Numbered from the stretch's first letter, positions 1 through 16,539 are shown. The stretch: 64,000 nt of DNA from an uncultured Chthoniobacterales bacterium (GCA_964242205.1 CAXTBX010000003.1:32698-96697); one strand, 5' to 3'. Made by a program: numbers and translations. The notes: generated by a model not told the origin, from the sequence alone.

Positions 1-133
1 ACGACCCGGTGAATCGCCGTGGGTCCGGCTTTTCGGATGCCGTTCTCGCCGACCCGGATCATCAAGCGGACTTCCCCGGTCGCAGGTATTCCCACGGGTA
101 AAAACCGGGGCCTCCGGTCGGTCTCACCGGACA

Positions 134-1120
134 TCATATGGTGCCCGTGGTGATCCCGCTTTCGACAATCAGTTTTGAAAACTGCTCTCCATCGACCATC
201 TCGATCCGCACGCCCTTTTCCTCAAGGTACTGCTCGGCCATCTGGTATGCCTCCTCCGCGATGGTACCCGAGGTAATCAGCATCCCGAGATTGGCCGCTT
301 CCGCCTCGATGCCGTTGATGAGTTGTTCGACCTCGGCTCTGCCGACCGGCGGGTACGGCTGCCAGTGCTTTGCTTGGACCGCGACCTTGTAACGGAAGAC
401 ACCCGCCACCCGGAAGAACGCCACCAGATCGGCCCCCATGTCATTGATGCGTGGCACGATCCGCACGTCGGTCGCGCCGAGTTTTTCCAGCACGTTGCCG
501 ATCAGTTGCTCGAAGCCGTAGTTCTCGATGCGGCCACCACGTATCTCGGCCAAGGTCTCGCGGACGAGGCGGCCTTGCAGGTCGTTCTGGAAGGTCGGTG
601 TTACCCCCTGTTCCGCCAAGTTGAGGCACTCCTCGATCTCGGCCACCAGATCGCTTGCGTCCGCGCAGGTGCCGCGAATCTTCATGCGTGAGATCAGGGC
701 CAGACGGGCGTGTGAACGGGGGATGGACCTGCCTTCGTTAAGCCACCTCACAGGTCGCCGGTAGGCTGAATCCGCCTCCACCTTGGAGGCGTCGCGGATC
801 GCTGCTCCCGTAATCTCCGCGACGTAAAACTCCGACCAGTGCGGCACCACCACCAGATCGCCGGGCACCATCTCGCGGATGAAACGCCAGAGATGTCCGG
901 CGGCATTTCCGGCACTGTGCAGCGTGGGTTCCTCTGGATAATACGTGCTACGGACGATCTCCCGGAAGGCGGGCCAGTCGAGTGCCGGGTCGAGCAATCC
1001 CTCCGCCCAAGCCCACCCGATGATGATCTCCCCGGTTTGCAGGGCCTCCGGTACCAAGTCATCCCCGCTCGGGGAGATTTTCAGAACAAAGGCGTTTTTC
1101 GGGGTGGTTTCCGGGTTCAT
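134..1120 (-). CDS. Mrr-family (type IV-like) restriction endonuclease with N-terminal PUA/EVE-like domain
   Basis: C-terminal FEQLI..LEKLG..DMGADL..VAVQAKHW Mrr-cat motif; N-terminal IIIGW..FIREMVPGDLVVVP typical of this family. Confidence 0.8.
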   Translation of the reverse strand: MNPETTPKNAFVLKISPSGDDLVPEALQTGEIIIGWAWAEGLLDPALDWPAFREIVRSTYYPEEPTLHSAGNAAGHLWRFIREMVPGDLVVVPHWSEFYVAEITGAAIRDASKVEADSAYRRPVRWLNEGRSIPRSHARLALISRMKIRGTCADASDLVAEIEECLNLAEQGVTPTFQNDLQGRLVRETLAEIRGGRIENYGFEQLIGNVLEKLGATDVRIVPRINDMGADLVAFFRVAGVFRYKVAVQAKHWQPYPPVGRAEVEQLINGIEAEAANLGMLITSGTIAEEAYQMAEQYLEEKGVRIEMVDGEQFSKLIVESGITTGTI

Positions 1121-1142
1121 GGATGCGGACCTATTTGGGGGA

Positions 1143-2321
1143 TCACGCGGCCATGATGGTCCGTGTGTGTCCGATAAATTCCTCGAAGTTCAGCAGCGTG
1201 ATTTTGCTGCCTTTCTCGTACTTCTTATGCAATTTCTCGGGTACGATCAGCGTGATCCCGGCCTCGTGCATCTCGTCCATCTGTCTGATGGAGATGCCGT
1301 GCTGCGTGGTGAGAAGGTGCTTCTTCCGAACGCGCGGTGCCTCCTGCAAAACCTGTCTCCAACGATCCTTGCAGGTGGTTTTCACCCCGACTACACAGAG
1401 CTTCTCAAGCGGGTATGCGGGATCGTTGTATTCCGCAGCACCCGGAATGATGATGTCGCTTTGCCCCCTGATCTTTCCCGGACGCATCTCGTGACGGATG
1501 TTCTCGCGGGTCAGAAGATGATCCACATGATTTTCCAAGGAACGACCTGCCCGCACCTTCCGCCGGTTGATAATCCTGTGGGCGGTTTTCACGAAGTCGT
1601 CAACGTCTTGAAACAATCTGGAGATGTCCTTGCTGCATAGTTGACGCTCGGCCAGTTTGAAAATCTCGAACTCGGTGTCCAGACACTTCTTCAATGCGTC
1701 GTCGGGAGGGAGGAGTTTGAATCCGGTGACACATTTTTCCAGAATCGCTCTGGCCGTTTCCGAGAACACGTCCGTTCCGGGAAATTTGTCATCCAGCAGC
1801 TTCAGAAAGTCGCGGCTGTGTTTGCGGATACAGCCTGTTGTCGAGCCGCCGGTGGTGACATTGCCGTCCTGATAGGCTCCCCACGACTGGGTGATGTCCA
1901 AGCCGAGGGCGGTCTGGACCTCCTCGATATCATCATCCTGGTCCAGCACATAGGCGGTGAACTCCCCGAACGTGTGCGGAATGATGACCAGCAGATCGCC
2001 GATACAGTCGGCTTGCAGGTAGGGGAAACCCTTGCCGAAGCCGGTCAGCCGGTACTCGCTCCGGGTTTTCTTGCCGTACCAAGTGACGTTGGATGGCGTC
2101 GTCAGCCCTATTTGCCACCAATGCACCTTGACGGCCTGCTTTTTCACAACGCCCTTGATCGGTGGAATGTCGGTGTAGAGCGCATGGATCGACTTCGGCA
2201 AATAGAAGCCCGCCTCGTTGCTACCGGTGGCCCCGACATTGTTCGGCTGGATGTACTTCAGGATGGCCCGCCCGGTGTCGGTGGCGTCCTCGATTGCCCG
2301 TTCGCAGACAGGAGAGGCCAT
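1143..2321 (-). CDS. EcoRII-like type IIE restriction endonuclease (EcoRII-N + EcoRII-C)
   Basis: N-terminal LKYIQPNNVGATGSNEAGFYLP..SEYRLTGFG; C-terminal RAGRSLENH..KTTCKDRWRQVLQEA; directly downstream of a Dcm-like MTase. Confidence 0.88.
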   Translation of the reverse strand: MASPVCERAIEDATDTGRAILKYIQPNNVGATGSNEAGFYLPKSIHALYTDIPPIKGVVKKQAVKVHWWQIGLTTPSNVTWYGKKTRSEYRLTGFGKGFPYLQADCIGDLLVIIPHTFGEFTAYVLDQDDDIEEVQTALGLDITQSWGAYQDGNVTTGGSTTGCIRKHSRDFLKLLDDKFPGTDVFSETARAILEKCVTGFKLLPPDDALKKCLDTEFEIFKLAERQLCSKDISRLFQDVDDFVKTAHRIINRRKVRAGRSLENHVDHLLTRENIRHEMRPGKIRGQSDIIIPGAAEYNDPAYPLEKLCVVGVKTTCKDRWRQVLQEAPRVRKKHLLTTQHGISIRQMDEMHEAGITLIVPEKLHKKYEKGSKITLLNFEEFIGHTRTIMAA

Positions 2322-2337
2322 AGTCTTGGATACCCTC

Positions 2338-3630
2338 TCAGTTTGCCACGGGCACGGCGCGTTTCACAAAGCAGCCGTTCCCCTTGCCTGCCTGATGCCC
2401 GGCAAGAACCTCCGTGATCCGCATCGCAATCGGCGTGACCCCCTTCGGTACGACCGCGTTTCCGAATTGCTTGTAAGCCTGCGTGTCGGAAACCGCGATG
2501 CTGTCCGCGTACTCATCAAATCCCATAAGCCGCGCCGCTTCCTTCGGCATGAGCCTGCGAGGGTTTTTGCCTTCCTGCGGTATCAGGATTTCCGAACCAT
2601 CCTTGTAATAACGCGCGCTCAGGGTGCGCGTGATCCCGGAGCGGGAGGCGAGGCCGAAGCCGAAGCCATTACCCTGTTCACGATGTTTCTCGGCGTAGCG
2701 TTGCAGGTAGGCCCAGAGGTGATCGGTCAGGGTATATTTGTCGGGTACATCCTCCTCCTTCTCCAAAATATCGGACAGGACCGGTTGTGGCTCCAAAGGT
2801 GGACCGGGGAACGTGAATTCGGGGCGCACCGGGAACACCTCCTTGTCGAAGCAGACGATGTAAACTCGTTCCCGGTGCTGCGGCACCCATGCCGCCGCGT
2901 CGATCACGTCGAAGAAGATGTGGTAGCGCAAGGAGTCCAACGTCTCGCGGATCACCTGCCATGTCTGGCCCTTATCATGGGATAGAAGATTGCGGACGTT
3001 TTCCAGGAAAAGCACCGGGGGTCTTTTCGCCTCGATGATCGTGGCGAGGTGGAAAAAGAGGGTTCCTTGGGTGACGCAATCGAATCCGTGTGCCCTGCCA
3101 AGGCTATTCTTCTTTGACACACCGGCAAGCGAGAATGGCTGGCACGGGAAGCCTGCCGCAAGCACGTCATGGTCGGGGATGTCTGACATCTTCACCTCGC
3201 GGATGTCACCGTGCGGCGTCTCGCCGTGCAATTTCTTATAGGTTCTCTGGCAACTGTCGTCCCACTCGCTGCTGAAAACGCACCGTCCACCAACCTTGCT
3301 CAAAGCAACCCGGAAGCCACCGATGCCCGCGAAGATGTCGATGAAATTGAAAAAGGCCGCTCCGTTTCCGGTGACACCGGCAATATCGTGTCGGGGTATT
3401 CCTGCATCTAGTGGCAGCGGTGTTTGCCCCCCGGCAGTGTCATAGGCACGCTTGAGTACATCCAGCACGAACTCCTGCTGGCTCGCGTGGTTCTGACCGC
3501 GCTCCCGGTCAATCCAGTGCCGCACATCCGGCGGCACGTTCCTGACGCAGATGTCATTCGATTTACGGGGCCGCCCCACCTTGCCTGTCCGTGGAGCGGA
3601 TTGTTCAACCCCAGGAAAATTTGATAGCAT
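2338..3630 (-). CDS. dcm: C5-cytosine DNA methyltransferase, Dcm/M.EcoRII-like (probably CCWGG), with N-terminal RHH-like extension
   Basis: FIDIFAGIGG, GFPCQPFSLAGVSKKNSLGRAHGF, ENV, QHRERVY, QFGNAVV motifs; close to E. coli Dcm as recalled. Confidence 0.93.
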   Translation of the reverse strand: MLSNFPGVEQSAPRTGKVGRPRKSNDICVRNVPPDVRHWIDRERGQNHASQQEFVLDVLKRAYDTAGGQTPLPLDAGIPRHDIAGVTGNGAAFFNFIDIFAGIGGFRVALSKVGGRCVFSSEWDDSCQRTYKKLHGETPHGDIREVKMSDIPDHDVLAAGFPCQPFSLAGVSKKNSLGRAHGFDCVTQGTLFFHLATIIEAKRPPVLFLENVRNLLSHDKGQTWQVIRETLDSLRYHIFFDVIDAAAWVPQHRERVYIVCFDKEVFPVRPEFTFPGPPLEPQPVLSDILEKEEDVPDKYTLTDHLWAYLQRYAEKHREQGNGFGFGLASRSGITRTLSARYYKDGSEILIPQEGKNPRRLMPKEAARLMGFDEYADSIAVSDTQAYKQFGNAVVPKGVTPIAMRITEVLAGHQAGKGNGCFVKRAVPVAN

Positions 3631-3864
3631 TTCTGCTCAGATATACTCTACCCCTTGTGGCAGTCACGCGAAATCTTCGGTTTTTACATCAAGATGCCGG
3701 GAATATCCTGCTCCGCCGGGTTGTCGGTCTGCTATCAGACCATGAGCACCGGCGGCACACGATAATCTTGCCGCGCTCGCGGTCAATCTGTTAGGTTCCA
3801 CGTCCGACCCGGATGCGGTGTGGACAGGCCCGCCCGTCGCACCGGGGGTACACACCGAGCATCC

Positions 3865-5502
3865 ATGAGCAATCCGATCCCACCAATCGCCGAAAAACTG
3901 CTGGTTCCACCCGATCCCGAACGCCTTGCCGAGGGGTTGCGCGATACCGGCTACCAGTTGAACACCGCCATCGCGGACATTGTGGACAACTCCATCGCGG
4001 CCAAGGCGAAGCTCGTGCAGATCGAATTGAGGATGGATTTCAGGGGCAACATCAGCCTCAACATCTTCGATGACGGCTCCGGGATGAACCGGGACGAACT
4101 GATCCTCGCCATGCGCTACGGCGCACCCAAGCGGCCATCGGCGGCCAGTCTCGGCAAGTTCGGTCTTGGTCTGAAGACCGCATCCACCGCTTTCTGCCGC
4201 AAGCTCTCGGTCGTCTCGCGCGCCTTGAAGGACGACCCACTGGTACGGGCCACTTGGGACCTCGACCACATCGCACGGGCCGGTCAATGGGAACTGTTTC
4301 TCGACGTTCCCACGGCAGCGCAGGAGAAGACGTTCGAGACCTTCATCACCGGAGGAAAAGGAACGATGGTCGTGTGGGAGGAGGTGGACCGCGTGCTCGG
4401 AGGGTACGCCGATCCGGGCGGCATCCCCGCCAAGAAGGCACTGGACAAGCTGGTGGAGTCGTTGCGCGAACACCTCGGGATGATCTTCCAGCGGTTTCTG
4501 GACAAGGCCGACAAGCGCGCTCCCAATGTTTCCATGAAGCTCAACGGTACGGACATCCCAGCATGGGACCCCTTCTGCGAGGGGGTGTCCACGGATGCTG
4601 GCAAGAGCACCCGCGACGTGGAACTTGCCGATGGCAGTATGGCGAGCTTCGACATCCGCGCGTTCATCCTCCCTCGCAAGGAGGAGTTCAATTCGGAGGA
4701 CGCAGCCCGAAACGCCCGGTTGAGCAACCAGAATCAGGGCATCTACATCTACCGCGAGAACCGGCTGATTCACGGACCGGACTGGCTGAAGATGTTTGCC
4801 AAGGAACCCCACCTGACGCTGCTGAGAACGGAGTTTTCGTTCGATCACCGGCTGGATGATGCGTTCCAGATCGACATCAAGAAGTCACAGGTCATTCTCG
4901 CCGAGGAACTCTACAACGACGTTCTCACCTTCCTGAATCCCGCCCGGCGGGCCGCCGAGCAGATGTACCGCAAGGGGCAGCGGAAGAAGAACGCGGAGGC
5001 AAATGCCGACGCTCACGGTGTCTCCAATCAGAACATCAGCAGCAAGGAGGACAAACTGCCAAAGCCGGACGTGCGCGGGAGTGATCCCGTTGCCGGTACG
5101 GTCGATCTGGTCAACGACAGCGGCAAGGTCCGGGTCAAGATCAAGCTCACGAAGACCACCCAGCCTCGCAAGGTGCTTATCCAGACGGAGGACAGCCTGC
5201 AAGACGGCGTGCTCTGGGAGCCGCGCCTCATCACCGATCCGACGAGCGGTAACTCGCATTACGGCGTCGTCATCAACACCGGTCATGCCTACTACCAGAA
5301 GGTTTATCTACCCAACTTGGCGCAGGGCGTGACCATCCAAGGGATGGACGCCCTGCTCTGGGGCCTGAGCATGGCCGAATTGAAGTGTCTCAGTGACGAG
5401 AACAAGGAAAGCCTTTCCGAGATGCGCCACGAGGTATCACGCAGCCTCCGCAAGCTGGTGGAGGACCTGCCCGAGCCGCCGGACAACAATGCTGACGCAT
5501 GA
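3865..5502 (+). CDS. MORC/MutL-like GHKL (HATPase_c_3) ATPase
   Basis: AIADIVDNS, DDGSGM, LGKFGLGLKTAS GHKL motifs, followed by a MORC S5-like region (QGIYIYRENRLI); alternative GTG start at 3820. Confidence 0.88.
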   Translation: MSNPIPPIAEKLLVPPDPERLAEGLRDTGYQLNTAIADIVDNSIAAKAKLVQIELRMDFRGNISLNIFDDGSGMNRDELILAMRYGAPKRPSAASLGKFGLGLKTASTAFCRKLSVVSRALKDDPLVRATWDLDHIARAGQWELFLDVPTAAQEKTFETFITGGKGTMVVWEEVDRVLGGYADPGGIPAKKALDKLVESLREHLGMIFQRFLDKADKRAPNVSMKLNGTDIPAWDPFCEGVSTDAGKSTRDVELADGSMASFDIRAFILPRKEEFNSEDAARNARLSNQNQGIYIYRENRLIHGPDWLKMFAKEPHLTLLRTEFSFDHRLDDAFQIDIKKSQVILAEELYNDVLTFLNPARRAAEQMYRKGQRKKNAEANADAHGVSNQNISSKEDKLPKPDVRGSDPVAGTVDLVNDSGKVRVKIKLTKTTQPRKVLIQTEDSLQDGVLWEPRLITDPTSGNSHYGVVINTGHAYYQKVYLPNLAQGVTIQGMDALLWGLSMAELKCLSDENKESLSEMRHEVSRSLRKLVEDLPEPPDNNADA

Positions 5503-6389
5503 ACGGGTCCATCGCTCCATTTCTGGTCGGTGCCGTGGAGGATCGTCTGCGGCTGGCCGTGAAGGCTCATCTGGACGACGGCGAGGATGGTGAATACTGC
5601 GATGTCACCCCGCTGGACATCGAAAAGGACAACGGTTTCACCGTGCGCTTCCGCGTTACCCGGCAGAACGCGGAGGCGACCTTCGTGCCGTACACCTACG
5701 CGGCGGACCTCATTGAGGCAATGGGCGGGGCTGCCCAGCAGGGACGGCTTGCCTTCACCGCGCTTGCCCGAGGACTGCACGATAGAGGATTGAAGTTGCC
5801 CATGAGCGTCAACGGGAAGGAGGTGGACCCGGCGGACGCCAGCACTTGGCCGGAGGGATGGCACCGGTTGGAAATGTCTCTCGCACGACGGATGCCGATG
5901 TTCGCGGAGGAGGGCGAGGAACCGCAGATCGAAACGCTGGCGGCGGAACTGGTGGTCCCCGTCCTCGCGCTCACGGTCGCCCTGATCGGGGTGGAGGATG
6001 CCGCCGATGAGCCGGAATCCCCGGTCACGACAGGGCAACCGGAGGGCAGACCATACCAGACTCTCGTGACGCGCTACGAGCGGAAGGGGGTGAACCGGGA
6101 AGCCTGTATCCAGTTGAAAGGCTGCCGGTGTCATGCCTGCGGCTTCGACTTTGAACGCTTCTACGGCCCGCTCGGGGCCGGGTACATCGAGGTGCATCAC
6201 ATCGTCATGGCATCCCGGATGGGCGCGGGCTACATGGTCGATCCGGCAAGGGACCTCGTGCCTCTCTGTGCGAACTGTCACGCGATGGTTCACCGGCAGG
6301 ACCCGCCCATGCCGGTGGAGGAACTCGCGCGACTTCTCGCGGCGCGGCGCGTACCGGAACCTGTCAATGGAAGCGAAGGTAAAGATTGA
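5499..6389 (+). CDS. McrA-like HNH endonuclease with unrecognised N-terminal domain
   Basis: TRYER..CHACGFDF..YIEVHH..DLVPLCANCHAMVH; ATGA overlap with the MORC stop codon. Confidence 0.85.
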   Translation: MNGSIAPFLVGAVEDRLRLAVKAHLDDGEDGEYCDVTPLDIEKDNGFTVRFRVTRQNAEATFVPYTYAADLIEAMGGAAQQGRLAFTALARGLHDRGLKLPMSVNGKEVDPADASTWPEGWHRLEMSLARRMPMFAEEGEEPQIETLAAELVVPVLALTVALIGVEDAADEPESPVTTGQPEGRPYQTLVTRYERKGVNREACIQLKGCRCHACGFDFERFYGPLGAGYIEVHHIVMASRMGAGYMVDPARDLVPLCANCHAMVHRQDPPMPVEELARLLAARRVPEPVNGSEGKD

Positions 6390-8277
6390 GGGGCGGGCCT
6401 TGCGCCTGACCGATGGCGACAGAACGCTGTACCCGCTCGCGGAGGAAATCTTCGCGGTGGTCTTCGAGGCTGCCGACAATATCAGGGGTGTACCGGTGTC
6501 GGCGCGGGATTTCGAGAGTACGGGAGTGGTTTTCTCGCCCAACCCGGCTGTTCCCCTATTGTTGCTGACCACGCATCCGTCAGGCCCGCGTGGTCCCGAG
6601 ATTCTGTGTGATCTGTTCGTCAGCACCGGCGCGGGGGAACATCCGGTCGGACGTGACGGTGACACGCTGCTGGATCACGCGGTCTGCGACGGTCATTGGA
6701 TGCCACTGCCGAGAGGCACTCTGGATGGGCTTGGCCGCATGTTGAAGAAGGCGGGCATCGCCCGGCCCGGAACGATCACCCTCGGTCAGTACATGAACCT
6801 GGTGCGCCAGACCGGCGCGGAGAGCATCGGCATCGAGGATCGCACCGCCGCCACCTTGGGCGCGGCTGACCTCGCCCCGCGCCTCGACGGCGAACCCCCC
6901 GCCGGTCTCCACGCCAAGCTGTTCCCGTACCAGCGCGAGGGATACCGCTGGCTTTCCTACATGGTCCGGGAGGGACTCGGGGCGGTGCTCGCAGACGAGA
7001 TGGGTCTAGGAAAGACCCTCCAGGTGATCTGCCTTCTGGCGGAATTGGCGGAACGTAACGGAACGGCCTGCATCGTGGTCGCCCCCGCGACGCTGCTGGA
7101 GAACTGGCGGCGGGAGATCGCCCGTTTCGCCCCCGGTCTCCGCGTCCTGATCCACCAAGGAGCGGGCCGGGCGGGTCTGTCAACCATGCTGGCCGGGTAC
7201 AATGTGGTGGTGACCTCCTTCGAGACCGCCGTGGGCGACATCGCCATGTTGAGGAACATCACATGGGACCTCGTGGTGGTGGACGAGGCCCAGAACGTCA
7301 AGAACCCGGAAGCTCGTCGTTCGGTCCAACTCAGGACCCTGCCGCGCCGTAGCACGGTCGCCGTGACGGGCACACCGGTGGAGAACCGCCTGCGCGATCT
7401 CTGGTCGGTGCTGGATTTTTCCCTGCCCGGCTGCCTCGGCTCCCTGCCCGAGTTCGAGCGCGAGTATCCCTCGACCCTTGAGGCCGCCCGGAAACTCGAA
7501 CCCCGCGTCTCGCCCCTGTTGCTGCGACGGTTGGTGCGGGACGTAGCGGACGATCTGCCCGGACGCATCGACATCCCGCAGCAACTCGAACTCGATGAGG
7601 AATCCGCGCGTGCCTACGAGGAAATCCGGGCCGAGGCGGTCGCGCGGTACGGGAAAGCGGCCTCCTTCGTGGCCCTGACGACCCTCCGCCAGTTCTGCAC
7701 GCATCCTTGGTTGGTCGGTCGGATGCGGCACATCACCGACCCGCTCCGCTGTTCGGTGAAGCTGAGTCGTCTCTTCGAGATCATGGAGGAAATTATCGCC
7801 ACCGGCGGAAAGGCCATCATTTTCACTTCCTTTCTGGAGATGACCGACATCCTGCTGCGGGAGATCGGTACGAGGCTGCGTATTCCGGTGGACCACATCG
7901 ACGGGAGGGTGGGAGTGGAGGACCGGCAGCGTCGGGTGGACTCCTTCGGCGCGGTGAAAGGGTCCGCCGTCCTCGTTCTCGGACCGAAGGCAGCCGGGGT
8001 CGGCCTCAACATCACGGCGGCGAATCATGTGATCCACTACAACCCGGAGTGGAACCCGGCGACGGAGGATCAGGCCACGGCACGCGCATACCGGCGCGGC
8101 CAGTATGAGGTTGTCACCGTGCATCGTCTCCTCTATGTTGCCACCATCGAGGAGGTCATGGACGAGAGGATGACCGGCAAGCGTGCGTTGGCCGGAACCG
8201 TGGTGGTGCCCACGGATAGTGAACGCGATATGGAGGACATCCTGCGCGCCTTGCAGGTATCTCCCCTCGACCGATAA
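6367..8277 (+). CDS. SNF2-family SF2 ATPase/helicase
   Basis: LFPYQREG, VLADEMGLGKT, VVDEAQNVKN, TGTPVEN, HYNPEWNPATEDQATARAYRRGQ motifs. Confidence 0.93.
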   Translation: MEAKVKIEGRALRLTDGDRTLYPLAEEIFAVVFEAADNIRGVPVSARDFESTGVVFSPNPAVPLLLLTTHPSGPRGPEILCDLFVSTGAGEHPVGRDGDTLLDHAVCDGHWMPLPRGTLDGLGRMLKKAGIARPGTITLGQYMNLVRQTGAESIGIEDRTAATLGAADLAPRLDGEPPAGLHAKLFPYQREGYRWLSYMVREGLGAVLADEMGLGKTLQVICLLAELAERNGTACIVVAPATLLENWRREIARFAPGLRVLIHQGAGRAGLSTMLAGYNVVVTSFETAVGDIAMLRNITWDLVVVDEAQNVKNPEARRSVQLRTLPRRSTVAVTGTPVENRLRDLWSVLDFSLPGCLGSLPEFEREYPSTLEAARKLEPRVSPLLLRRLVRDVADDLPGRIDIPQQLELDEESARAYEEIRAEAVARYGKAASFVALTTLRQFCTHPWLVGRMRHITDPLRCSVKLSRLFEIMEEIIATGGKAIIFTSFLEMTDILLREIGTRLRIPVDHIDGRVGVEDRQRRVDSFGAVKGSAVLVLGPKAAGVGLNITAANHVIHYNPEWNPATEDQATARAYRRGQYEVVTVHRLLYVATIEEVMDERMTGKRALAGTVVVPTDSERDMEDILRALQVSPLDR

Positions 8278-8285
8278 CACGGATC

Positions 8286-8798
8286 ATGTCCACGAAAATC
8301 ATTGCGAAGACACTCAGCGCGAACGACACCGGGGAAACCGGCGCACACATGGGAGGTGTTCTCATCCCGCGAGAGGACACCATGTTGTCGTTCTTTCCAA
8401 GGCTGGATGGCACCATCAAAAATCCGCGCGAGATTGTGGATGTTATTGACGATGTGGGCCGTGACTGGACCTTCCAGTTCATCTACTACAACGGCAAGTT
8501 CTTCGGGGGCACACGCAACGAGTACCGCCTGACCGGCATGACCGCGTTCCTGCGCGAGTTCAACCTGAAAGCCGGGGACACTTTGGTGTTCAGGAAGGAG
8601 GGACGGGAAACCTTTGTGAGCTACCGCCGCGCCGGGGAGATGGCTGGAGAACAGACGACCGCTGGCTCCTCGGTGATACGCGAGGACGCGCCCGGTTCCA
8701 ACGATCCCGACTGGCTCCCCGGCATGGACAAACTTCCCAAAGCCCGGCGCGTGCTCAGGCTGGGAGGCAACTGGAAGGTGATCCAATACGACGAGTGA
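8286..8798 (+). CDS. standalone EcoRII N-terminal (B3-like) DNA-binding domain protein
   Basis: KTLSANDTGETGAHMGGVLIP..GTRNEYRLTGM..LKAGDTLVF; no nuclease domain. Confidence 0.82.
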   Translation: MSTKIIAKTLSANDTGETGAHMGGVLIPREDTMLSFFPRLDGTIKNPREIVDVIDDVGRDWTFQFIYYNGKFFGGTRNEYRLTGMTAFLREFNLKAGDTLVFRKEGRETFVSYRRAGEMAGEQTTAGSSVIREDAPGSNDPDWLPGMDKLPKARRVLRLGGNWKVIQYDE

Positions 8799-8810
8799 CC
8801 ATGAAGGTTG

Positions 8811-9326
8811 TCAATCCGTGTGGGGAACCTCCCGCCGTTCTGATGGCCTGTCATCCGTCTCGTGTTCCAAGCTGATAAGAAGATCGACCTCTCCCCGCAA
8901 CCATCCGATCACAAGTCCAGTGGTGGCCGAGTTGAGCAGGGCGAAAACGAACAGCAATAACTGCGCGACAAAAAACCTCCCGCCGATTGGCTCCGAGGCG
9001 TGTCCCTTCTCCTCGTTGTGGATCGAGAAAACCAGGAAGATGGCGGACAGGACAATACCGAGGATTGCGATGGAGATTACCCGCATGATCTTGACCTCGA
9101 AACCACGCTTCCGGCGGTAATAAAAAATCTGTTTCCGCATCGCTTCCGCATGAAGAATGATGGCGGTGAACATCATCTCTGGGGACAGGATAATATTTAC
9201 CAAGGGCTGCCCGGTCATGAAATGGTCAGCCGCATAGACGTACAATGGCAGGAGCACGAACGCGGAACTCTCGACAAGCCACTGAAAACCGAGGACGAAA
9301 AGCACTTCTACTGGCCGGCAGATCAT
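8811..9326 (-). CDS. hypothetical membrane protein, about 4 TM helices
   Basis: four hydrophobic stretches; start uncertain (longest ORF begins at 9482, overlapping the repressor). Confidence 0.65.
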   Translation of the reverse strand: MICRPVEVLFVLGFQWLVESSAFVLLPLYVYAADHFMTGQPLVNIILSPEMMFTAIILHAEAMRKQIFYYRRKRGFEVKIMRVISIAILGIVLSAIFLVFSIHNEEKGHASEPIGGRFFVAQLLLFVFALLNSATTGLVIGWLRGEVDLLISLEHETDDRPSERREVPHTD

Positions 9327-9432
9327 ACCGAGCAGGGCGAGACAGCCTCGGGCAGGTGACGGCGACCGGTTGGCATCGGCACCGGTTCCCGGAGAACCTT
9401 CCGTGGATGTTTTCTCCTCGGACACGGGACGG

Positions 9433-10128
9433 TCAAAATTTCCGGTCCGCCCACACGACGCGCCCGACAATCCTTGCCTCATCGCCGATGGATCGCGCCG
9501 CGATCTGCCGGGGCCGGTAGTTCGGGTTGTCGCTCAGAACCTCGACCGTATTGCGGTCGGGGCGGTGCAGCCGCTTGACATGGAGCGCGCCTTCGAGGCC
9601 GAGCGCGAAGATACCATCGCGTATCGCCGTATCGGAGCGGTCCACTAGGAGAATGTCCCCCGGTCGCAGGGTCGGTTCCATGCTGTCGCCTTCGACGTGA
9701 ATCAGGCAGAGTTGCGCCGGATCGACGCGAAGTTTGTTCCGCAACCAGTCGCGCCGGAAGGCGACGAGGCCGTCCATGCACTCGGGACCGACCTCGCTGC
9801 CGGGTCCCGCGCTGGCGCAGACGTTGTAGTCTGGAATCCATACCACATCGGTCCCGACCTCGTCGGTTCCCGGCTGCATTGATCCCACGCCGGTCAGCAG
9901 CCACTCCGCGCGCACCCCCGCTGCCTCTGCCAGTTTGAAGATGGTGGAACGGGGCGGCTCGCCCTTCTCGAAGTATTTGCGGATGGTACTCTGGGCGATG
10001 CCGCTGGCCTTCGCCAGCGCGTTGACGCTGCCAACGAGTTCCGCCAATCTGCGAAGCCGTTGCTTGAAACTCTCGGTCAGGGCATCGGGAGTGTTCTGCT
10101 GGGTGGACATGGAATAAAGCCGGAACAC
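9433..10128 (-). CDS. CI/LexA-like repressor (XRE HTH + S24 peptidase)
   Basis: HTH region VNALAKASGIAQSTIRKY; ASAG Ala-Gly site; EGDSMEP (Ser) and HVKRL (Lys). Confidence 0.9.
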   Translation of the reverse strand: MFRLYSMSTQQNTPDALTESFKQRLRRLAELVGSVNALAKASGIAQSTIRKYFEKGEPPRSTIFKLAEAAGVRAEWLLTGVGSMQPGTDEVGTDVVWIPDYNVCASAGPGSEVGPECMDGLVAFRRDWLRNKLRVDPAQLCLIHVEGDSMEPTLRPGDILLVDRSDTAIRDGIFALGLEGALHVKRLHRPDRNTVEVLSDNPNYRPRQIAARSIGDEARIVGRVVWADRKF

Positions 10129-10186
10129 GGGTCAGCTTGAATACTAGCACGGGCCGGTGCAAAGTCGAACATTTTGAGCGAATTTC

Positions 10187-10222
10187 CGTGAAAATTTTTC
10201 ACGATAGGCTAAGTATTAGCCT
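10187..10222. promoter_or_regulatory. two adjacent palindromes, candidate operators in the divergent repressor/tnsAB promoter region
   Basis: CGTGAAAA-T-TTTTCACG (10187-10203) and AGGCTAA-GTA-TTAGCCT (10206-10222). Confidence 0.55.
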
Positions 10223-10263
10223 TTATGCGCTATGATGAGGCTATTCCCGACATCCGTGGAACG

Positions 10264-12981
10264 ATGATGTCGGTGGAGGTATTCGGGGATTGGTGCCGCC
10301 GGTTGCAATTGTCGGATGGTTGCCGGGCGATGATCGAGCGCGTCCGCTCCTCGCCCCCCGTTCGACGTGTGGGCGGTGGGGGTGGCAATGTCTGCGGGTT
10401 CTATCCGTCCACGAAGATGGGTCATACCATCCAGTTCGAGTCGCACCGCAACGAACTGGCCGCCATTCACGAGTACGAGCACGACCCTGACGTGCTCGAA
10501 TACTGGGATCAACCCGAATCCATCAGGCTCAACTATGAGGATCGTAATGGTCGCCGCATCGGGATCAATCACACCCCGGACTTTCTCGTGTTACGACGGG
10601 ATGGGGCAACCTGGGAGGAATGCAAACCCGAGGACAGGCTGCACGGCCTCGCCCGGCAGTCACCCAACCGCTACATCCGGCACGAGGACGGTACCTGGAC
10701 CTGTCCGCCGGGTGAGGAACACGCGGCCCGGCTGGGACTCTCCTACCGGCTGCGTTCCTCCGGGACCATTGACTGGACCCTCCAGCGCAACCTGACCTTC
10801 CTCGAAGACTACCTGCGCGCGGAAACCCCGCGCGTGGACCCGGAGACCACCGGACGGTTGCTGGCGATGGTCCGGGATCACCCCGGTCTCACGCTGGCCG
10901 ATCTGGTCCTGCGGGCGGAGGGAGTCAGCCGTGACGCGATCCACACACTCATCGCCACGGGCACCGTCCACGCCGATCTGCGGGCCGCCGCGCTCGCCGA
11001 GCCGGAGCGGGTGCGACTATTTCGTGACCATGTCACCGCGACCGCCCACGGGATCGTGGCGGAGCGCGCCGGACCGGCGACGGATACGATGCCGGACCTG
11101 CTCGCCCTGCCCGGCACGAATGTCCTGTGGGACGAGCGGGCACTTGCCATTGTCCACGTTGGTCCGTCCAAAATCGTGTTGCAGGACCCGGACGGTGCGC
11201 TGGTCAAGCTGACGAAAAAGAGCTTCGAAGACCTGCTGAAAGCGGGGGAGATCACCGCCCGCGCGCCGGAGGTGGCCGGGACCGACCCCGGTCTGCGGGA
11301 ACTGCTCGCCGGGGCCAGCGAGGAGGAGTTCGCGGAGGCGAACCGCCGCTACCTCATCATCGAACCCCTCCTGTCGGCCACGGGCCTGCCGGATGATCTG
11401 CCGCTGTCGCGCGGGGCACCCACCGTCCGCACGATCAGGCGGTGGATCACGGCATGGCGGCAGGCGGAGGCGACCTGTGGATGCGGTTACGCGGGGCTGC
11501 TGCCCGGCTGGGGACGGAGGGGCAATCGCTCGCGGAAGCTACCGCAGGGGACGCTCGACGCGATGGACAAAGCCATCCGGGAGGAGCACGAAACAATCAA
11601 GGGCAAGGTGGCGGAGCGGGTTTACGGCGCACTGGTCAGCCGGTGCGAGCAACTGGGTCTCGTCCCGCCGAGCGGTGCGACCTTCCACCGGGCAATCCGG
11701 TCCAGACCGAAGCACGAACAGGCCCTCAAGCGGCAGGGCCACCGCGCGGCCTACCGGTACGAGATTCCCTACCTCGAACTCTCGCTGACCACGCCCCGCC
11801 ACGGGGAACGTCCCTTCGAGGTCTGCCACATCGACCACACCCAACTCGACCTCGAACTGCTGTGCTCGCGCACGGGCGTCAACTTGGGGCGTCCTTGGAT
11901 GACGCTGCTCGTGGATGCGTTCTCCCGCCGCATTCTCGCTGTCTTCGTGACCTTCGATGAGCCGAGCTACCGCTCCTGTATGATGGTCCTGCGCCTGTGC
12001 GTGCAGCGGCACGGCAGGTTGCCGCAAATCATCGTGGTGGACAACGGCCCGGAGTTCAGGAGTACTTGGTTCGATACTACCTTGGCACGGCATCGCATCA
12101 CCAAAAAGCTGCGCCCGCCCGCCAAGGCCCGCTTCGGCTCCGTGTGCGAGCGGTTGTTCGGCACCACCAACACGCAGTTCGTCCACAATCTCGCGGGTAA
12201 CACCAAGGTGATGCGGAACGTCCGGCAGGTGACAAAATCCGTCGATCCGAAGGGACTCGCGTGCTGGACCCTCGGCCTGTTCTACGAGTCTCTCTGCGCC
12301 TACACCTACGAGCAGTACGACACCTCTGACCATCCGGCTCTCGGTGACAATCCACGCGCGGCGTTCACCAGGGGACTGGAACTCGGCGGGGAGCGTGCCC
12401 ACCTCTTCGTGCCTTACGACGAGACGTTCAGGATGCTCATGCTGCCGACCACCCCGAGAGGCAAGGCCAAGGTGCAGCCGGGCAACGGGGTGAAGATCAA
12501 CTACAACTACTATTGGGCGGACGAGTTCAGGAACCCGGACATCGAGAACACGCGGGTCCCCGTGCGCTACGATCCGTTTGACAGCGGCACCGCATGGGCG
12601 CGCGTGGGCAAACGCTGGCTCAAATGCACCTCCGGGTACTACCAGACGTTCCGGGGCCGCTCGGAAAAGGAGATCATGCTGGCGACCACCGGGTTGCGGA
12701 AGCTGCGGCAACGACACTCGGGCCGTGCCATCATCTCGGCCCGCTCCCTCGCGGACTTCCTCGGCAGCGTCGAGGCGCGGGAACTCCTGCTGCCGCAACG
12801 GGCCAAGGACGCGGCTCTCGGCGAGGTGATGGCGGTCATCGAGGGACATCCGGCTCCCGTGGCCGCCGCCGTTTCCGATGCCCGACCGGCGACCCCGCCC
12901 GTCATGGACGCATCCGACAGTGGCTCGATCTGGGCGGCGGCCACGTCTCCCGACAACCTGCGCGACTTCGAGGCTTTCTGA
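10264..12981 (+). CDS. tnsAB: fused TnsA endonuclease-TnsB DDE transposase (TnsAB)
   Basis: TnsA motifs QFESHRNEL and HTPDFLV..WEECKP; DDE motifs HIDHT, VVDNGPEF, CERLFG; Mu-like C-terminal region; alternative start at 10225. Confidence 0.92.
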   Translation: MMSVEVFGDWCRRLQLSDGCRAMIERVRSSPPVRRVGGGGGNVCGFYPSTKMGHTIQFESHRNELAAIHEYEHDPDVLEYWDQPESIRLNYEDRNGRRIGINHTPDFLVLRRDGATWEECKPEDRLHGLARQSPNRYIRHEDGTWTCPPGEEHAARLGLSYRLRSSGTIDWTLQRNLTFLEDYLRAETPRVDPETTGRLLAMVRDHPGLTLADLVLRAEGVSRDAIHTLIATGTVHADLRAAALAEPERVRLFRDHVTATAHGIVAERAGPATDTMPDLLALPGTNVLWDERALAIVHVGPSKIVLQDPDGALVKLTKKSFEDLLKAGEITARAPEVAGTDPGLRELLAGASEEEFAEANRRYLIIEPLLSATGLPDDLPLSRGAPTVRTIRRWITAWRQAEATCGCGYAGLLPGWGRRGNRSRKLPQGTLDAMDKAIREEHETIKGKVAERVYGALVSRCEQLGLVPPSGATFHRAIRSRPKHEQALKRQGHRAAYRYEIPYLELSLTTPRHGERPFEVCHIDHTQLDLELLCSRTGVNLGRPWMTLLVDAFSRRILAVFVTFDEPSYRSCMMVLRLCVQRHGRLPQIIVVDNGPEFRSTWFDTTLARHRITKKLRPPAKARFGSVCERLFGTTNTQFVHNLAGNTKVMRNVRQVTKSVDPKGLACWTLGLFYESLCAYTYEQYDTSDHPALGDNPRAAFTRGLELGGERAHLFVPYDETFRMLMLPTTPRGKAKVQPGNGVKINYNYYWADEFRNPDIENTRVPVRYDPFDSGTAWARVGKRWLKCTSGYYQTFRGRSEKEIMLATTGLRKLRQRHSGRAIISARSLADFLGSVEARELLLPQRAKDAALGEVMAVIEGHPAPVAAAVSDARPATPPVMDASDSGSIWAAATSPDNLRDFEAF

Positions 12982-12987
12982 TCCACC

Positions 12988-14166
12988 ATGAGCACGATGG
13001 AACATCTCACGGCGGGTTTTCCGCGCGAACTGCTCTCCCGTCCCAAAAGGGCGCGCAGGGAATACTTCCGTGATTATCGTGTCCCGCACACGCGGCTGCG
13101 GACGGTTTGCGAGGAACTCATGTCGGCCATCCTCGACACGGCAGATCGTTCTCTGATTTTCTTGGCAGGTCCGACCGGTGTGGGCAAAACGACCCTCATC
13201 CGTTTCCTCGAAGCCCGTCTCACCTCATATTTGCTGAATGAATTGGAAGAGGATCGGGGACGATTTCCTTTCGTCACCCTTGAGGTGCCCGCGCCGGAGA
13301 CATCGGTGTTCCCGTGGCGTGATCTCTACCAACGTGCTCTGATAGCGATGAACGAGCCACTCATCGGGCACAAGACCGCCGTGCCCGCGCGTCCGACGCC
13401 GGATGGTGGGGTGGAGGCTGTCACCCGGACCGGGCGCGGGGCGGCAACGCAGGACCTTCGCCAAGCTCTGGAATCGGTGCTGCGCCATCGTCGTCCCCTC
13501 GTCTGCATTCTTGATGAGGGACAACATCTGATGAAGATCGCCAGCGGGCGCAAACTGCGGGACCAGTTGGATGTCATCAAATCCGTCGCCAACCTGAGTG
13601 GGGTGCCGCATCTGCTGACCGGCACCTACGATCTGGTTCCCTTCCTTGATCTCAGCGGCCAACTCTCCCGTTGTAGCACCATTATCCATCTGCCGCGTTA
13701 CCAGAACATGGTGCTGGAGGACGCCACTCTGTTCTCCGGGGTCGTGCGCGCCTTCCAGAGGCATCTGCCACTCGCGGAGGAGCCGGACCTGATCGGGCGT
13801 GTCGAGTATCTGTACCAGCATTCCATCGGCTGTGTGGGTGTGCTCAAAAACTGGCTGGGCCGCGCGCTCAACCTCGCGCTGGACGAGAACGCCCCGACGC
13901 TGACGACGGCGCACCTGAAGAAACGCGCGCTCACCGCCGCCCAATGCCGCCGGATGCTCTCCGACGCGCGGGAAGGTGAGAAAAAGATGACCGACGATGA
14001 CGCGGAGATCGCCCGCTTGCAGGAGGAACTCGGCATGTTTTCTGCGGCAACGGTGCCCGTGTCCTCCAAGGCGGGGAACGACGCCGGTTCCACCCGCAAA
14101 CAGAAGCCGTTCCAGCGCAAACCCGTCCGCGACCCGGTCGGACATGACGACGACCATGCATTCTGA
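12988..14166 (+). CDS. tnsC: TnsC/TniB AAA+ ATPase
   Basis: Walker A GPTGVGKT, Walker B CILDEGQH; lies between tnsAB and tniQ. Confidence 0.92.
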   Translation: MSTMEHLTAGFPRELLSRPKRARREYFRDYRVPHTRLRTVCEELMSAILDTADRSLIFLAGPTGVGKTTLIRFLEARLTSYLLNELEEDRGRFPFVTLEVPAPETSVFPWRDLYQRALIAMNEPLIGHKTAVPARPTPDGGVEAVTRTGRGAATQDLRQALESVLRHRRPLVCILDEGQHLMKIASGRKLRDQLDVIKSVANLSGVPHLLTGTYDLVPFLDLSGQLSRCSTIIHLPRYQNMVLEDATLFSGVVRAFQRHLPLAEEPDLIGRVEYLYQHSIGCVGVLKNWLGRALNLALDENAPTLTTAHLKKRALTAAQCRRMLSDAREGEKKMTDDDAEIARLQEELGMFSAATVPVSSKAGNDAGSTRKQKPFQRKPVRDPVGHDDDHAF

Positions 14167-15550
14167 ATTATCCATGCTGCTGCCACCGCCGCTGCCCGCG
14201 CGCAGCCGCCTCATTGCTCTGCCTCCCTGCGGCGTCGGTACGGCGCGCACGGAGAGCCTGACAGGCTACGTCGCCCGACTCGCCGCCGCGCATGGTGTGA
14301 GTACGGGCACTCTCCTGCAACACGAGCTGGTCGGGCATATCAAAAACATTGCCGGGGAAAGGAGTGGGGCGCGGGTCAGTCTCACACCGGCCTATTTGCG
14401 TTCGATGAACGGTATGGACCCGGTGGCCGACACCTGGACGCGGCTGCTCGGGGAACTGACCTGTCGCGGTGATCTGCGCCATCTGACCATGCTTGCCTGG
14501 ATGAACGTGATGCCGTCACGCGGTCTGTTCCGGGAGGAACGCGCCTGGTGCCCGGAGTGCTATGCGTGCGATGAGGTGGTTCACGAACACCTGATCTGGT
14601 GCCTCGCGCCCGTCACGATCTGCACGCACCATCGGCGGCCTCTGGAAAACCGGTGCCCGCACTGCCACGAGAGCCTGCCCGTCATTTCGTGGCGTTCCGT
14701 GCCTGGCTTCTGCTCGTCCTGCCGTGGCTGGTTGGGAACCACATCGGGGAGCGCGGACGCGGGTATGGCGGCCTCCGTGGAACTCCCTGCATGGGAATGC
14801 CGGGTGGCGGAAAACTTCGGTGAACTGGTCTCCGCCGCGCCGGGCCTCACGCATCCTCCCGGCAAGGACCGGATCGCACACGCGCTGGAAGCTCTGACCG
14901 GTTGCACAGGTGCGGGGCGGATGGCTGGCGTTCTGGGCGTGGACTACATGGCGTCTTGGGCATGGAGCACGGGCAAGATGAGGCCGCTGATCGCCTGCCT
15001 GCTGCCCATCTGCGCGAGGTTCGGGGTGTCATTGATGGCCTTTTACACGGATGCCGCCCTGCAACCCGGCGCACCTGACGGGGTGATCCCACAGGCAACG
15101 GACAGGGCCGGGACCCCGCGTGCCAAACCTGTCCGGCGGGGATCACGTCACCGGCAGCGCGCATTGCTCAAGCGGGCGGGTGCATACCTGCAAAGCATCG
15201 TGACGGAGGAGCCGGTGCCGCCGCCATCGCTGTGTGAAATCTGCCGGAGGACAGGACACGATAAACCGGTTCTCTACCGGCATTACCCGGACCTCTGCCG
15301 GGCCATCACCGCGCGTTGGAAAGAATGGAACCGTGGCCGGGGTTCGGATCGCCGCGAGCGGCTTGCCCGTGAGATACGTGAGGTCGCCCTCCGGTTGCAC
15401 GCCGAGGGGATTGTTCCCACCACTCTGACGGTGGCGCGATCTCTCGCCCTGCCCGGAGCGATCCGGGACCCGGTAGCCCGGTCCACGTTGCGTGAGATCA
15501 GAAAGCAACTCGCATCGGAAGCAGCCGGTTTGCAGACCGGGAACGGATGA
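14144..15550 (+). CDS. tnsD: TniQ/TnsD target selector with C-terminal extension
   Basis: ESLTGYVARLAAAH, zinc fingers WCPEC..C..HH..CPHC..FCSSC, C-terminal HTH-like region; overlaps tnsC stop. Confidence 0.88.
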   Translation: MTTTMHSELSMLLPPPLPARSRLIALPPCGVGTARTESLTGYVARLAAAHGVSTGTLLQHELVGHIKNIAGERSGARVSLTPAYLRSMNGMDPVADTWTRLLGELTCRGDLRHLTMLAWMNVMPSRGLFREERAWCPECYACDEVVHEHLIWCLAPVTICTHHRRPLENRCPHCHESLPVISWRSVPGFCSSCRGWLGTTSGSADAGMAASVELPAWECRVAENFGELVSAAPGLTHPPGKDRIAHALEALTGCTGAGRMAGVLGVDYMASWAWSTGKMRPLIACLLPICARFGVSLMAFYTDAALQPGAPDGVIPQATDRAGTPRAKPVRRGSRHRQRALLKRAGAYLQSIVTEEPVPPPSLCEICRRTGHDKPVLYRHYPDLCRAITARWKEWNRGRGSDRRERLAREIREVALRLHAEGIVPTTLTVARSLALPGAIRDPVARSTLREIRKQLASEAAGLQTGNG

Positions 15551-15585
15551 CCTCTCACGCGCCTGCCCCCGTTTGGAAGTCCGGT

Positions 15586-16278
15586 TCAGTCCCAACCCAC
15601 ATGACAGGCGAGGTACTCGTGAATGACAATGCGTACCTCGATCCCGTGGTCCACGGAGGTGCGGAACCGGTACAGGCCATCCTGGACAATCAGCCAGGGA
15701 GGTTCGTGAGAGCCGTCAAGAACGACCAATCGGTGCATCGAGCGGCTTCCCACCTCGGGCCATAAAGCGACGCCGCCGCTATGGGGTGTCTCGAAAGCGT
15801 CCCGCTGTCCGGGCAACATCACCGGCAATGGGGTGATCTGTATAAAATCAGGTGGCTCGGGATGAGGTTCGTTCAACTCGTGGAGTGCGTGGCCCTGCGC
15901 GAGTTTGGTGATCACGGCCCTGACCCTTTGCTGCTCGGGTTGGAAGATGGTTTCCTCCCCGGACACGGTGCGGCTCTGTTCGATGCGCGCGCGCAACGCC
16001 GGTGCTTCCGATAGAATCCTCCTGATCTTCGGACGGGCGATCAGGTCCGGGTCGGTGGAACCGGCCAGAACGCACGAGATCAGACAGGCGAGGTATTGCT
16101 CGTCGGCGGAGAAGCGCGAGTTGCAGGCGGGGCAGGCGGGAACAACAGGCAGATTATCGGGATATGGCTCATCCAGCAGAACGCGGGAGGGGCAGTGGTC
16201 GCGGGTTCCCGTGGAACCGCCGCAAAATGCACAGAATGCAAGCTGGCGGTTGTCACCATAGAAAGGTACTTGGAGCAT
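15586..16278 (-). CDS. HNH endonuclease
   Basis: CAFCGG..TRDHCP..VPACPACN zinc-finger HNH motif. Confidence 0.8.
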   Translation of the reverse strand: MLQVPFYGDNRQLAFCAFCGGSTGTRDHCPSRVLLDEPYPDNLPVVPACPACNSRFSADEQYLACLISCVLAGSTDPDLIARPKIRRILSEAPALRARIEQSRTVSGEETIFQPEQQRVRAVITKLAQGHALHELNEPHPEPPDFIQITPLPVMLPGQRDAFETPHSGGVALWPEVGSRSMHRLVVLDGSHEPPWLIVQDGLYRFRTSVDHGIEVRIVIHEYLACHVGWD

Positions 16279-16382
16279 GGGTGGCGGATGGCCCGGCCCC
16301 ATCCGGCCACTTCCGATGATCCGGGTGGTTTGCCGGTTGCCTGAACAACCGATGTGTGGGACGGTGGGTGCCTTTCCAGATG

Positions 16383-16448
16383 GAAAGCATAAAGTGTCCG
16401 TACACTTTAGAAAGCATAACCTGTCCGTGGCGGACAGGTTATGCTTTC
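16383..16448. repeat. three copies of an 18-19 bp motif, candidate TnsB sites at the transposon end
   Basis: GAAAGCATAAAGTGTCCGT (16383-16401), GAAAGCATAACCTGTCCGT (16410-16428), inverted CGGACAGGTTATGCTTTC (16431-16448). Confidence 0.75.
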
Positions 16449-16467
16449 GGTTTCATAGAAATCAGCA

Positions 16468-16539
16468 GTTCCCGTAGTTCAACGGATAGAATAGAGGTTT
16501 CCTAAACCTTTGATCCGAGTTCGATTCTCGGCGGGAACA
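16468..16539 (+). tRNA. tRNA-Arg(CCT)
   Basis: acceptor stem GTTCCCG/CGGGAAC, anticodon arm GAGGT-TTCCTAA-ACCTT, T-loop GTTCGATTC; CCA not encoded. Confidence 0.93.

Follow-up and report, generated by a model that had tools for sequence, protein, structure and literature searches.

How does a Tn7-like transposon come to lie in front of a tRNA gene, and what directs it there? The question is raised by a locus in the genome of an uncultured Chthoniobacterales bacterium (GCA_964242205.1, hereafter G000), whose assembly comprises 5.06 Mb in 239 contigs. We analyzed a stretch of 64,000 nucleotides of its contig CAXTBX010000003.1 (C3:32698-96697), which we call the window and by whose positions features are cited unless a contig coordinate is given. 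An earlier note, made from this sequence alone, had described at 10264-16539 a CRISPR-less Tn7-like element with fused TnsA and TnsB next to the 5′ side of tRNA-Arg(CCT), and had guessed at a verrucomicrobial host, within the group of Planctomycetes, Verrucomicrobia and Chlamydiae, which agrees with the assignment of the genome to the Chthoniobacterales (Verrucomicrobiota). We consider it likely that the locus holds a complete, probably active cut-and-paste transposon of the fused-TnsAB/TnsC/TnsD lineage, which homes through TnsD to the 5′ side of tRNA-Arg(CCT). The type I-B2 and I-D CRISPR-associated transposons (CASTs) draw their transposition core from this lineage.

The transposition genes announced by the earlier note, namely a fused TnsA-TnsB, a TnsC and a single TniQ/TnsD of about 468 amino acids, were all recovered by Pfam and PDB matches. 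The first, tnsAB (10264..12981, + strand), encodes 905 amino acids that combine a TnsA endonuclease with a TnsB DDE transposase; its frame is open over 10225-12981, and translation probably begins at the ATG of 10264, where the note's interval also begins, as homologues start with an MMS... motif. TnsA_N, rve and Mu-transposase_C domains lie in this one open reading frame (ORF), and the product aligns end to end with the solved 898-residue TnsAB of the type I-B2 transposon PmcCAST (PDB 9bw1 chain M, E=2e-297). Conserved are the TnsA residues E59/D106/E119-K121 and the TnsB residues D524/D593/E629, and D106 aligns with the experimentally tested D106 of the type I-D transposon McCAST, in which mutation of the catalytic Asp of TnsA changed the outcome from cut-and-paste transposition to cointegrates (PMC9881144). 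The AAA+ adaptor ATPase gene tnsC (12988..14166, +) was recognized by Pfam (AAA_22/TniB) and by its match to PmcCAST TnsC in PDB; its product matches 8fcu_Q and 9g0f_A with E of about 1e-97 over residues 8-389 and has the Walker A motif GPTGVGKT and the Walker B motif ILDE. The putative target selector is encoded by tnsD (14144..15550, +), a large TniQ-family gene (Pfam PF06527) whose 468-residue product is collinear over residues 12-456, at 34% identity, with the 462-residue PmcCAST TnsD of PDB 8v32/9bw1 (8v32_J, E=1e-79). It is the only TniQ gene in the whole genome.

Where does the element begin and end? The interval 10264-16539 does contain the transposition module, as the earlier note had stated, but the whole element is far larger: it spans C3:29256-49152 (19,897 bp), starts 3,441 bp ahead of the first base of the window and ends at window position 16455, which leaves 1..16455 as its in-window portion. 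This extent was derived from reconstruction of the empty site, a TAGAA duplication and housekeeping genes beyond both ends. Its G+C content is 61.5%, compared with 63.5% for the genome. The end-like repeats mentioned in the note are three copies of GAAAGCATAAnnTGTCCG at 16383-16448, a pattern for which 0.09 matches were expected by chance in the search that returned these three. They make up the tRNA-proximal end (16380..16455), which has two direct sites (16383-16400 and 16410-16427), an inverted terminal site (16431-16448) and the terminus ...GGTTTCA at 16455; the direct and inverted copies together make a perfect 18-bp palindrome. A weight matrix built from the end repeats retrieved seven strong putative TnsAB sites on the 108-kb contig and none elsewhere above threshold, the next-best match scoring far below them. 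Three of the seven lie at 16380-16451. The other four, all in direct orientation, form a second cluster at C3:29260-29416, 3.3-3.4 kb ahead of the first base of the window. Compared between the two clusters, the outermost sites are mutually inverted, have an extra ACCG in common and stand beside 5′-TG...CA-3′ termini. Directly outside these termini are the two copies of the 5-bp target-site duplication TAGAA (16456..16460 and C3:29251-29255). Beyond the clusters are genes for an epimerase, ComM and TatC on one side and for an ABC-2 permease and the Wzt ATPase on the other. The matching distal end, beginning at C3:29256, and the duplication at both junctions, which the earlier note had named as things to look for, are therefore both in place.

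Two other assignments of the ends were considered and rejected. A terminus at the TGT of 16436 does not fit, as the palindrome runs past this TGT and both the comparison with empty sites and the register of termini in the family give 16455. The distal cluster, whose sites are oriented like the two direct proximal sites, might have been the end of a second, tandem element; we rejected this because the genome has a single set of tns genes, housekeeping genes lie past the cluster, and the outermost sites are inverted and flanked by TAGAA. At 45-60 nt to the inside of the first binding site of the proximal end, we also observed a short motif, GTTGCC(G/T)G (16330-16345), which recurs in three of the relatives described below (L057, L059 and L159).

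Empty tRNA-Arg loci, another item that the note had suggested for comparison, are present in genomes of the same genus. Joining the flanks of the element (C3:...29255 + C3:49158...) yields "...ttcataagtacc-tagaa-atcagca|GTTCCCG", in which TAGAA is present once and occupies positions -12 to -8 relative to tRNA-Arg(CCT). The joined sequence matches the uninterrupted region upstream of tRNA-Arg(CCT) in four same-genus genomes (G007, G008, G003 and G012), and a close TnsAB is missing from 12 of the 13 same-genus genomes. The tRNA-Arg(CCT) gene itself (16468..16539, +), which we take as the probable attachment-site gene, is intact according to ARAGORN and Rfam (64.5 bits). Its 5′ end faces the element at 12 nt from the terminus and the gene reads away from it, just as the note had it. 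Among the 41 tRNAs found in the genome this tRNA is present in a single copy; a tRNA-Arg(TCT) is also there.

To what family does the element belong, and is its position usual there? TnsAB and TnsD trees, which the note had proposed to build, place the core in the fused-TnsAB, tRNA-homing TnsD lineage that includes the type I-B2 and I-D CASTs. When one genome per species was scanned, at least 578 relatives at 45-55% identity came up, distributed over Cyanobacteriota, Chloroflexota, Acidobacteriota, Bacillota, Actinomycetota, Planctomycetota and Pseudomonadota. The note's match to the I-B2/I-D lineage stood. It had given cyanobacterial relatives as the main source of described TnsAB fusions with tRNA-homing TnsD; in the genome collection, the family is not mainly cyanobacterial. 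Fused tnsAB genes outside cyanobacteria had already been reported (PMC10293859; bioRxiv 10.1101/2025.07.27.667033), and the family, its Cas-free members and their homing to tRNA genes were known as well (PMC9881144, PMC11406308). The gene order of the family is tnsAB-tnsC-tnsD-end. The tnsD-side end starts with two direct sites, which a short spacer separates from an inverted terminal site, and closes with 7 nt ending in CA, a layout that we found in 15 cyanobacterial loci, PmcCAST and McCAST among them, in one Bacillota locus and in the close relatives of the window element; TnsAB sites in both orientations at one end have been described for relatives (PMC9881144). With its fused TnsAB, TnsC, TnsD, both-orientation sites and 5-bp duplication, the window element has five features of the fused-TnsAB subfamily. 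A further one, insertion about 26-33 bp past the 3′ end of a tRNA, is not what it displays: it and five relatives end 9-12 nt before the 5′ end.

The side on which the tRNA lies was surveyed by running ARAGORN on 93 family loci, on six further loci and on the element itself. Outside the group formed by the element and its five relatives, a tRNA beside the tnsD-side end was on the strand opposite to the operon, with its 3′ end facing the element, in 17 of 17 loci, which involve tRNA-Val, Ala, Thr, Leu and Arg. The spacing from terminus to tRNA was 27-31 nt in the 16 of these that have a recognizable end, whose CA terminus is in register with that of the window element; the end of the remaining locus (L088) could not be placed. 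This spacing is in line with the insertion distances measured for the type I-D CASTs McCAST and CyCAST, cited below. Within the group, tRNA-Arg(CCT) is co-directional with the operon, and the distance from the terminus to its +1 position is 12 nt in the window element, 11 in L057, 12 in L058, 10 in L059 and 11 in L159. The TnsD proteins of the five relatives (these four and L056) are 55-69% identical to that of the element. Spacer sequences are unrelated between the loci and the genes past the tRNA differ; the tRNA, intact in five of the six element-bearing loci, is the sole sequence common to all of them, including L058, whose tRNA is divergent. The 5′-side group forms one clade, on a long stem and with support of 100, whether the tree is built from TnsD or from TnsAB. 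In the TnsAB tree it is sister (95) to another Chthoniobacterales element and lies outside the cyanobacterial tRNA-TnsD clade. Since the sites of the congeners are empty while the proteins of the clade are deeply diverged, the tRNA-Arg position must have been hit at least two times in independent events, and the G000 copy must have come in after diversification of the genus. Independent hits at one position are what site-specific homing would predict. The note's idea of homing at tRNA-Arg would have been in difficulty had homologues turned up at unrelated sites; the close homologues occupy the same site.

Several points weigh against this interpretation. The junction of L056 is of low quality, on a contig of 3x coverage where the tRNA reads as broken (distance 9 nt). 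Both ends together with both flanks are available for the G000 copy alone, so that the duplication and the distal flank are known from one element; the contigs of L057-L059 and L159 end short of the distal flanks. The supporting loci are on short metagenomic contigs whose hosts are not known, and the clade is rare, with no close member in 400 sampled genomes of the phylum. A metagenome scan with the TnsD alignment returned only distant relatives of 29-42% identity. Finally, a consensus scan of the junction for a sigma-70-type promoter or a terminator found none.

In the mechanism that we propose, the single TnsD would bind the DNA of the tRNA-Arg(CCT) gene and nucleate a TnsC ring at the side of the tRNA 5′ end. 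TnsC would then recruit TnsAB bound to the two ends, and TnsAB would carry out the insertion, in which the tnsD-side end comes to face the tRNA at 10-12 nt from +1 and the 5-bp duplication is generated. Binding of the tRNA gene by TnsD is suggested because this gene is the sole sequence common to the six loci and lies on the side on which the recognized gene is found in the family. Provided that the geometry of TnsD, TnsC and TnsAB is conserved, the recognized segment would be roughly positions 15-60 of the tRNA gene (D-loop, anticodon arm and T arm), about 19 bp deeper in the gene, because the spacing falls short by about 19 bp of the 29-33 bp observed where relatives insert after a tRNA. One may speculate that the tRNA arms, which are inverted repeats at the DNA level, ease a flip of the binding orientation.

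Two further observations concern the recognized gene in more distant relatives. The same-genus genome G001 carries a sister fused-TnsAB element (L063, G001:C272, 1-300) with the same palindromic end layout, a TnsAB 50% and a TnsD 33% identical to those of the window element, and a tnsD-side end that lies 17 bp past the stop codon of the ribonucleotide reductase small-subunit gene (compare G000:C58:29786-30397, L158). One genus thus harbors two related elements with different attachment sites; the other site of the G001 element reflects its different TnsD and does not refute homing. Together with the 17 tRNA loci, it places the recognized gene consistently on the tnsD side. The other observation comes from G343, a verrucomicrobial genome of the same class and a different family, which contains a distant module with an 885-aa TnsAB-like protein, TnsC, a 513-aa TnsD (24% identical) and Wadjet cargo. 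This module stops in front of a co-directional tRNA-Met(CAT), about 14 nt from the tRNA 5′ end (L167 2760-3090; L169 = G343:C1:640000-656000), where it replaces a TTGACA promoter region found there in seven congeners; the homologous upstream flank is 47.5 kb away. Neither the distal end nor the displaced promoter was located within the 56 kb examined. The module may represent a second 5′-side lineage.

How closely does the element resemble systems that have been characterized? PmcCAST (Tn7744, from Nostoc sp. 'Peltigera membranacea cyanobiont' 210A; locus L075) has a TnsAB, TnsC and TnsD that are 52% (tblastn), 44% and 34% identical, respectively, and shares the order tnsAB-tnsC-tnsD, end, tRNA, as well as two direct sites and an inverted terminal site with a CA terminus in the same register. 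It differs in having a small TniQ, Cascade genes and a CRISPR array, while the window element is Cas-free, and in its location after tRNA-Val, about 31 nt from the 3′ end, as opposed to a location in front of tRNA-Arg(CCT), 12 nt from the 5′ end. PDB entries 8v32 and 9bw1 are PmcCAST complexes, and the TnsD of PmcCAST binds a tRNA gene (PMC11915506). To the same subfamily belong the type I-D elements McCAST (Tn7575) and CyCAST (Tn7745) and the cyanobacterial Cas-free elements with fused TnsAB, which have in common with ours TnsAB sites in both orientations at one end and the catalytic D106. Cyanobacterial relatives insert beside a tRNA gene with TnsABC and TnsD alone, the measured insertions lying downstream of tRNA-Leu at 29 +/- 1 bp for McCAST and at 30-33 nt for CyCAST (PMC9881144, PMC10293859). 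The hosts of McCAST and CyCAST are cyanobacterial; the TnsD clade described here lies outside the cyanobacterial tRNA-TnsD clade.

Canonical Tn7 (TnsABCDE, with attTn7 downstream of glmS) is similar in that TnsD/TniQ directs its insertion to a conserved gene, from which it keeps a fixed distance, and also in the 5-bp duplication, in asymmetric ends with several transposase sites and in the TnsC adaptor; it differs in that TnsA and TnsB are separate and TnsE is present. Moreover, Tn7 inserts past its target gene and leaves the expression of that gene unaffected, while the window element lands between promoter and gene. Type V-K CASTs also have tRNA genes as attachment sites, but use a guide RNA and lack TnsA. 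Archaeal elements with fused tnsAB lie beside tRNA-Thr (bioRxiv 10.1101/2025.07.27.667033) and again have tRNA attachment sites in common with ours. Reviews place the sites of Tn7-like elements at downstream "safe sites" (PMC8649781), and in the literature that we searched there was no paper on insertion of a Tn7-like or TnsD-directed element upstream of a tRNA gene, and none with tRNA-Arg as a Tn7-like attachment site.

The landing place has a bearing on the expression of the tRNA. In most same-genus genomes a -10-like box (CATAAGT, TATAAGT or CATAAAT) stands ahead of tRNA-Arg(CCT), mostly at about -23 to -17, and in G000 the insertion falls between this box and the gene, displacing the box by 19.9 kb. 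The junction recreates TTTCATAGAA, which resembles the native TTTCATAAGT. With a single-copy tRNA parted from its -10-like box, transcription of the tRNA would have to start within the element or pass through it, unless the tRNA is dispensable; a start inside the element and read-through from the co-directional tns operon are both conceivable. Tandem GGTGAAACT motifs were also observed at about -75 to -50 of tRNA-Arg(CCT), conserved in several congeners (L009 16470-16556 = C3:29169-29255; L033-L036, L038), and may be an upstream promoter or regulator element. A comparison of window 16456-17100 and L009 15900-16556 with same-genus genomes indicated that the neighborhood of this tRNA is rearranged between species, the gene being in congeners on other contigs than the epimerase and ABC-2 genes or far from them.

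Upstream of the tns operon, and divergent from tnsAB, is a gene for a CI/LexA-type repressor with a helix-turn-helix domain and an S24 peptidase domain (9433..10128, - strand; Pfam Peptidase_S24 2e-21, HTH_3), which is conserved in position among relatives (L058 748-1428, L059 5184-5858). The 96-bp spacer separating it from tnsAB contains two perfect palindromes, read from the sequence as candidate operators (10188..10221): GTGAAAATTTTTCAC at 10188-10202 and GGCTAAGTATTAGCC at 10207-10221. This arrangement suggests damage-inducible control of transposition. A bolder interpretation, which we regard as rather unlikely, is that landing ahead of the tRNA is an adaptive strategy, in which the element, having replaced the native promoter, takes over the transcription of the sole tRNA-Arg(CCT) and TnsD reads the gene from the opposite side. 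If true, the tRNA would be transcribed by read-through of the tns operon, under the self-cleaving repressor, or from a promoter borne by the end; decoding of AGG would be tied to the regulation of the transposon, and loss of the element would be costly. TnsD would then read the anticodon and T-arm portion of the gene from the side opposite to that used by all characterized relatives, and the clade would show, for a system with solved structures, a natural case in which the TnsD target was re-oriented and re-spaced.

The main rival to recognition of the tRNA gene is that TnsD recognizes the conserved upstream (promoter) region, which insertion has turned into the distal flank; in that case the end next to the target would be the distal one, and the tRNA would be adjacent as a by-product. 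The GGTGAAACT repeats and the CATAAGT-like box, both conserved in the genus, would offer such a target, and with a roughly fixed distance between promoter and tRNA the constant spacing of 10-12 nt is by itself no proof that the tRNA is recognized. However, in all other family loci examined, the 17 with a tRNA and the one at the ribonucleotide reductase small-subunit gene, the recognized gene is at the tnsD-side end. The upstream sequences are unrelated in the congeners G011, G002, G013 and G001, whereas the tRNA recurs at all six element-bearing loci, even where it has diverged (L058), and the homologous TnsD of PmcCAST binds a tRNA gene. We therefore judge recognition of the promoter region improbable.

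Might the six loci instead descend vertically from one old chance insertion, as an immobile relic that never homed to the 5′ side of the tRNA? The rarity of the clade and the unknown hosts of the metagenomic contigs would fit such a history, as would the loss of most of tnsAB in L057 and the split tnsD in L059. In G000, by contrast, all tns genes are open, and the catalytic motifs, both ends and the duplication are intact. The site is empty in congeners whose flanks at the tRNA are 95-98% identical, while the TnsD proteins of the clade are only 55-69% identical, so the G000 insertion is much younger than the clade; spacers, too, vary between loci in length and sequence. A relic is accordingly very improbable. 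Least credible of all, and close to negligible, is a cryptic RNA-guided element for which the Cas components or the guide would be supplied from another locus. It owes its appeal to the nearest characterized relatives being CAST cores. Yet family searches of all ORFs found no cas gene in the 19.9-kb element, no CRISPR or other repeat array was found there, and an Rfam scan of the element returned no RNA except tRNA-Arg(CCT). Cascade genes and the small TniQ that couples to Cascade in type I-B2 and I-D CASTs are likewise lacking, the latter genome-wide, and the single TniQ of the genome is collinear with a protein-guided TnsD. The description of the element as CRISPR-less, which cas genes elsewhere in it would have overturned, is thereby upheld. 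Nor does the element look like a tyrosine-integrase tRNA island, as it contains no integrase gene, lies at the 5′ side and is bordered by a 5-bp duplication. Homing of a protein-guided transposon to tRNA-Arg(CCT) therefore remains our preferred explanation. As a separate observation, a tyrosine-integrase gene lies immediately past the same tRNA-Arg(CCT) in L058 (7377-8585) and L056 (4131-5264), where the tRNA thus has a Tn7-like element at its 5′ side and an integrase-type island at its 3′ side.

The remainder of the element is predicted to be about 13 kb of restriction and defense genes. Outside the window are an HhH-GPD protein and two ORFs without assigned function. Within it, on the minus strand, we found genes for an Mrr-like type IV restriction endonuclease (134..1120; Pfam Mrr_cat 1e-20, PADLOC PDC-S02 / mREase_IV), an EcoRII-like restriction endonuclease (1143..2321; Pfam EcoRII-C 2e-52, EcoRII-N) and a Dcm-like C5-cytosine DNA methyltransferase (2338..3630; Pfam DNA_methylase 4e-77), the latter two making up a restriction-modification pair. 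They are followed by four tightly packed, co-directional genes on the plus strand (3820..8798), identified with Pfam and PADLOC, for a MORC/MzaB-like GHKL ATPase (3820-5502; PADLOC MzaB 1e-44), an HNH nuclease (5499-6389; Pfam), an SNF2 helicase (about 6133-8277; PADLOC ZorD/DpdE-like 8e-125) and a stand-alone EcoRII-N/B3 domain protein (8286-8798; Pfam). This block is a candidate defense operon; no complete PADLOC system was matched. An ORF of 223 amino acids (8811..9482, -) has no significant family match. Between tnsD and the end, a Cys-rich ORF of 238 amino acids (15586..16302, -), also without family match, has the look of cargo: L160 has a matching 3′ fragment past its tnsD, and the ORF is missing from L058, L059 and L159. 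In L057 (1-9631; TnsD 69% identical), where tnsAB is reduced to a 118-aa remnant and tnsC, tnsD and the proximal end are kept, we observed HhH-GPD, Mrr and EcoRII genes in common with the window element, and the cargo is thus partly conserved across the clade.

What, then, does the locus add to the biology of Tn7-like elements? The new attachment site and target selector that the earlier note had anticipated take the form of the 5′ side of tRNA-Arg(CCT) and of a separate TnsD clade; new as well are the short spacing and the cutting off of a single-copy tRNA from a conserved -10 box. The norm for Tn7-like elements is a safe site just past a conserved gene, and the characterized members that home to tRNA genes insert 26-33 bp after the tRNA. 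The clade described here departs from this norm twice, in landing on the 5′ side of its gene, 10-12 nt away, and in severing that gene from its promoter. Because its proteins are about 34-52% identical to those of PmcCAST, a system with solved structures of TnsC-TnsD-DNA and of TnsABCD, it offers a tractable natural experiment on how the specificity, orientation and spacing of TnsD evolve, a question that bears on the retargeting of protein-guided insertion tools. It also raises the questions of how a host tolerates, or comes to depend on, a transposon within the promoter of a tRNA gene, and of how far this family and its defense cargo have spread beyond the cyanobacteria.

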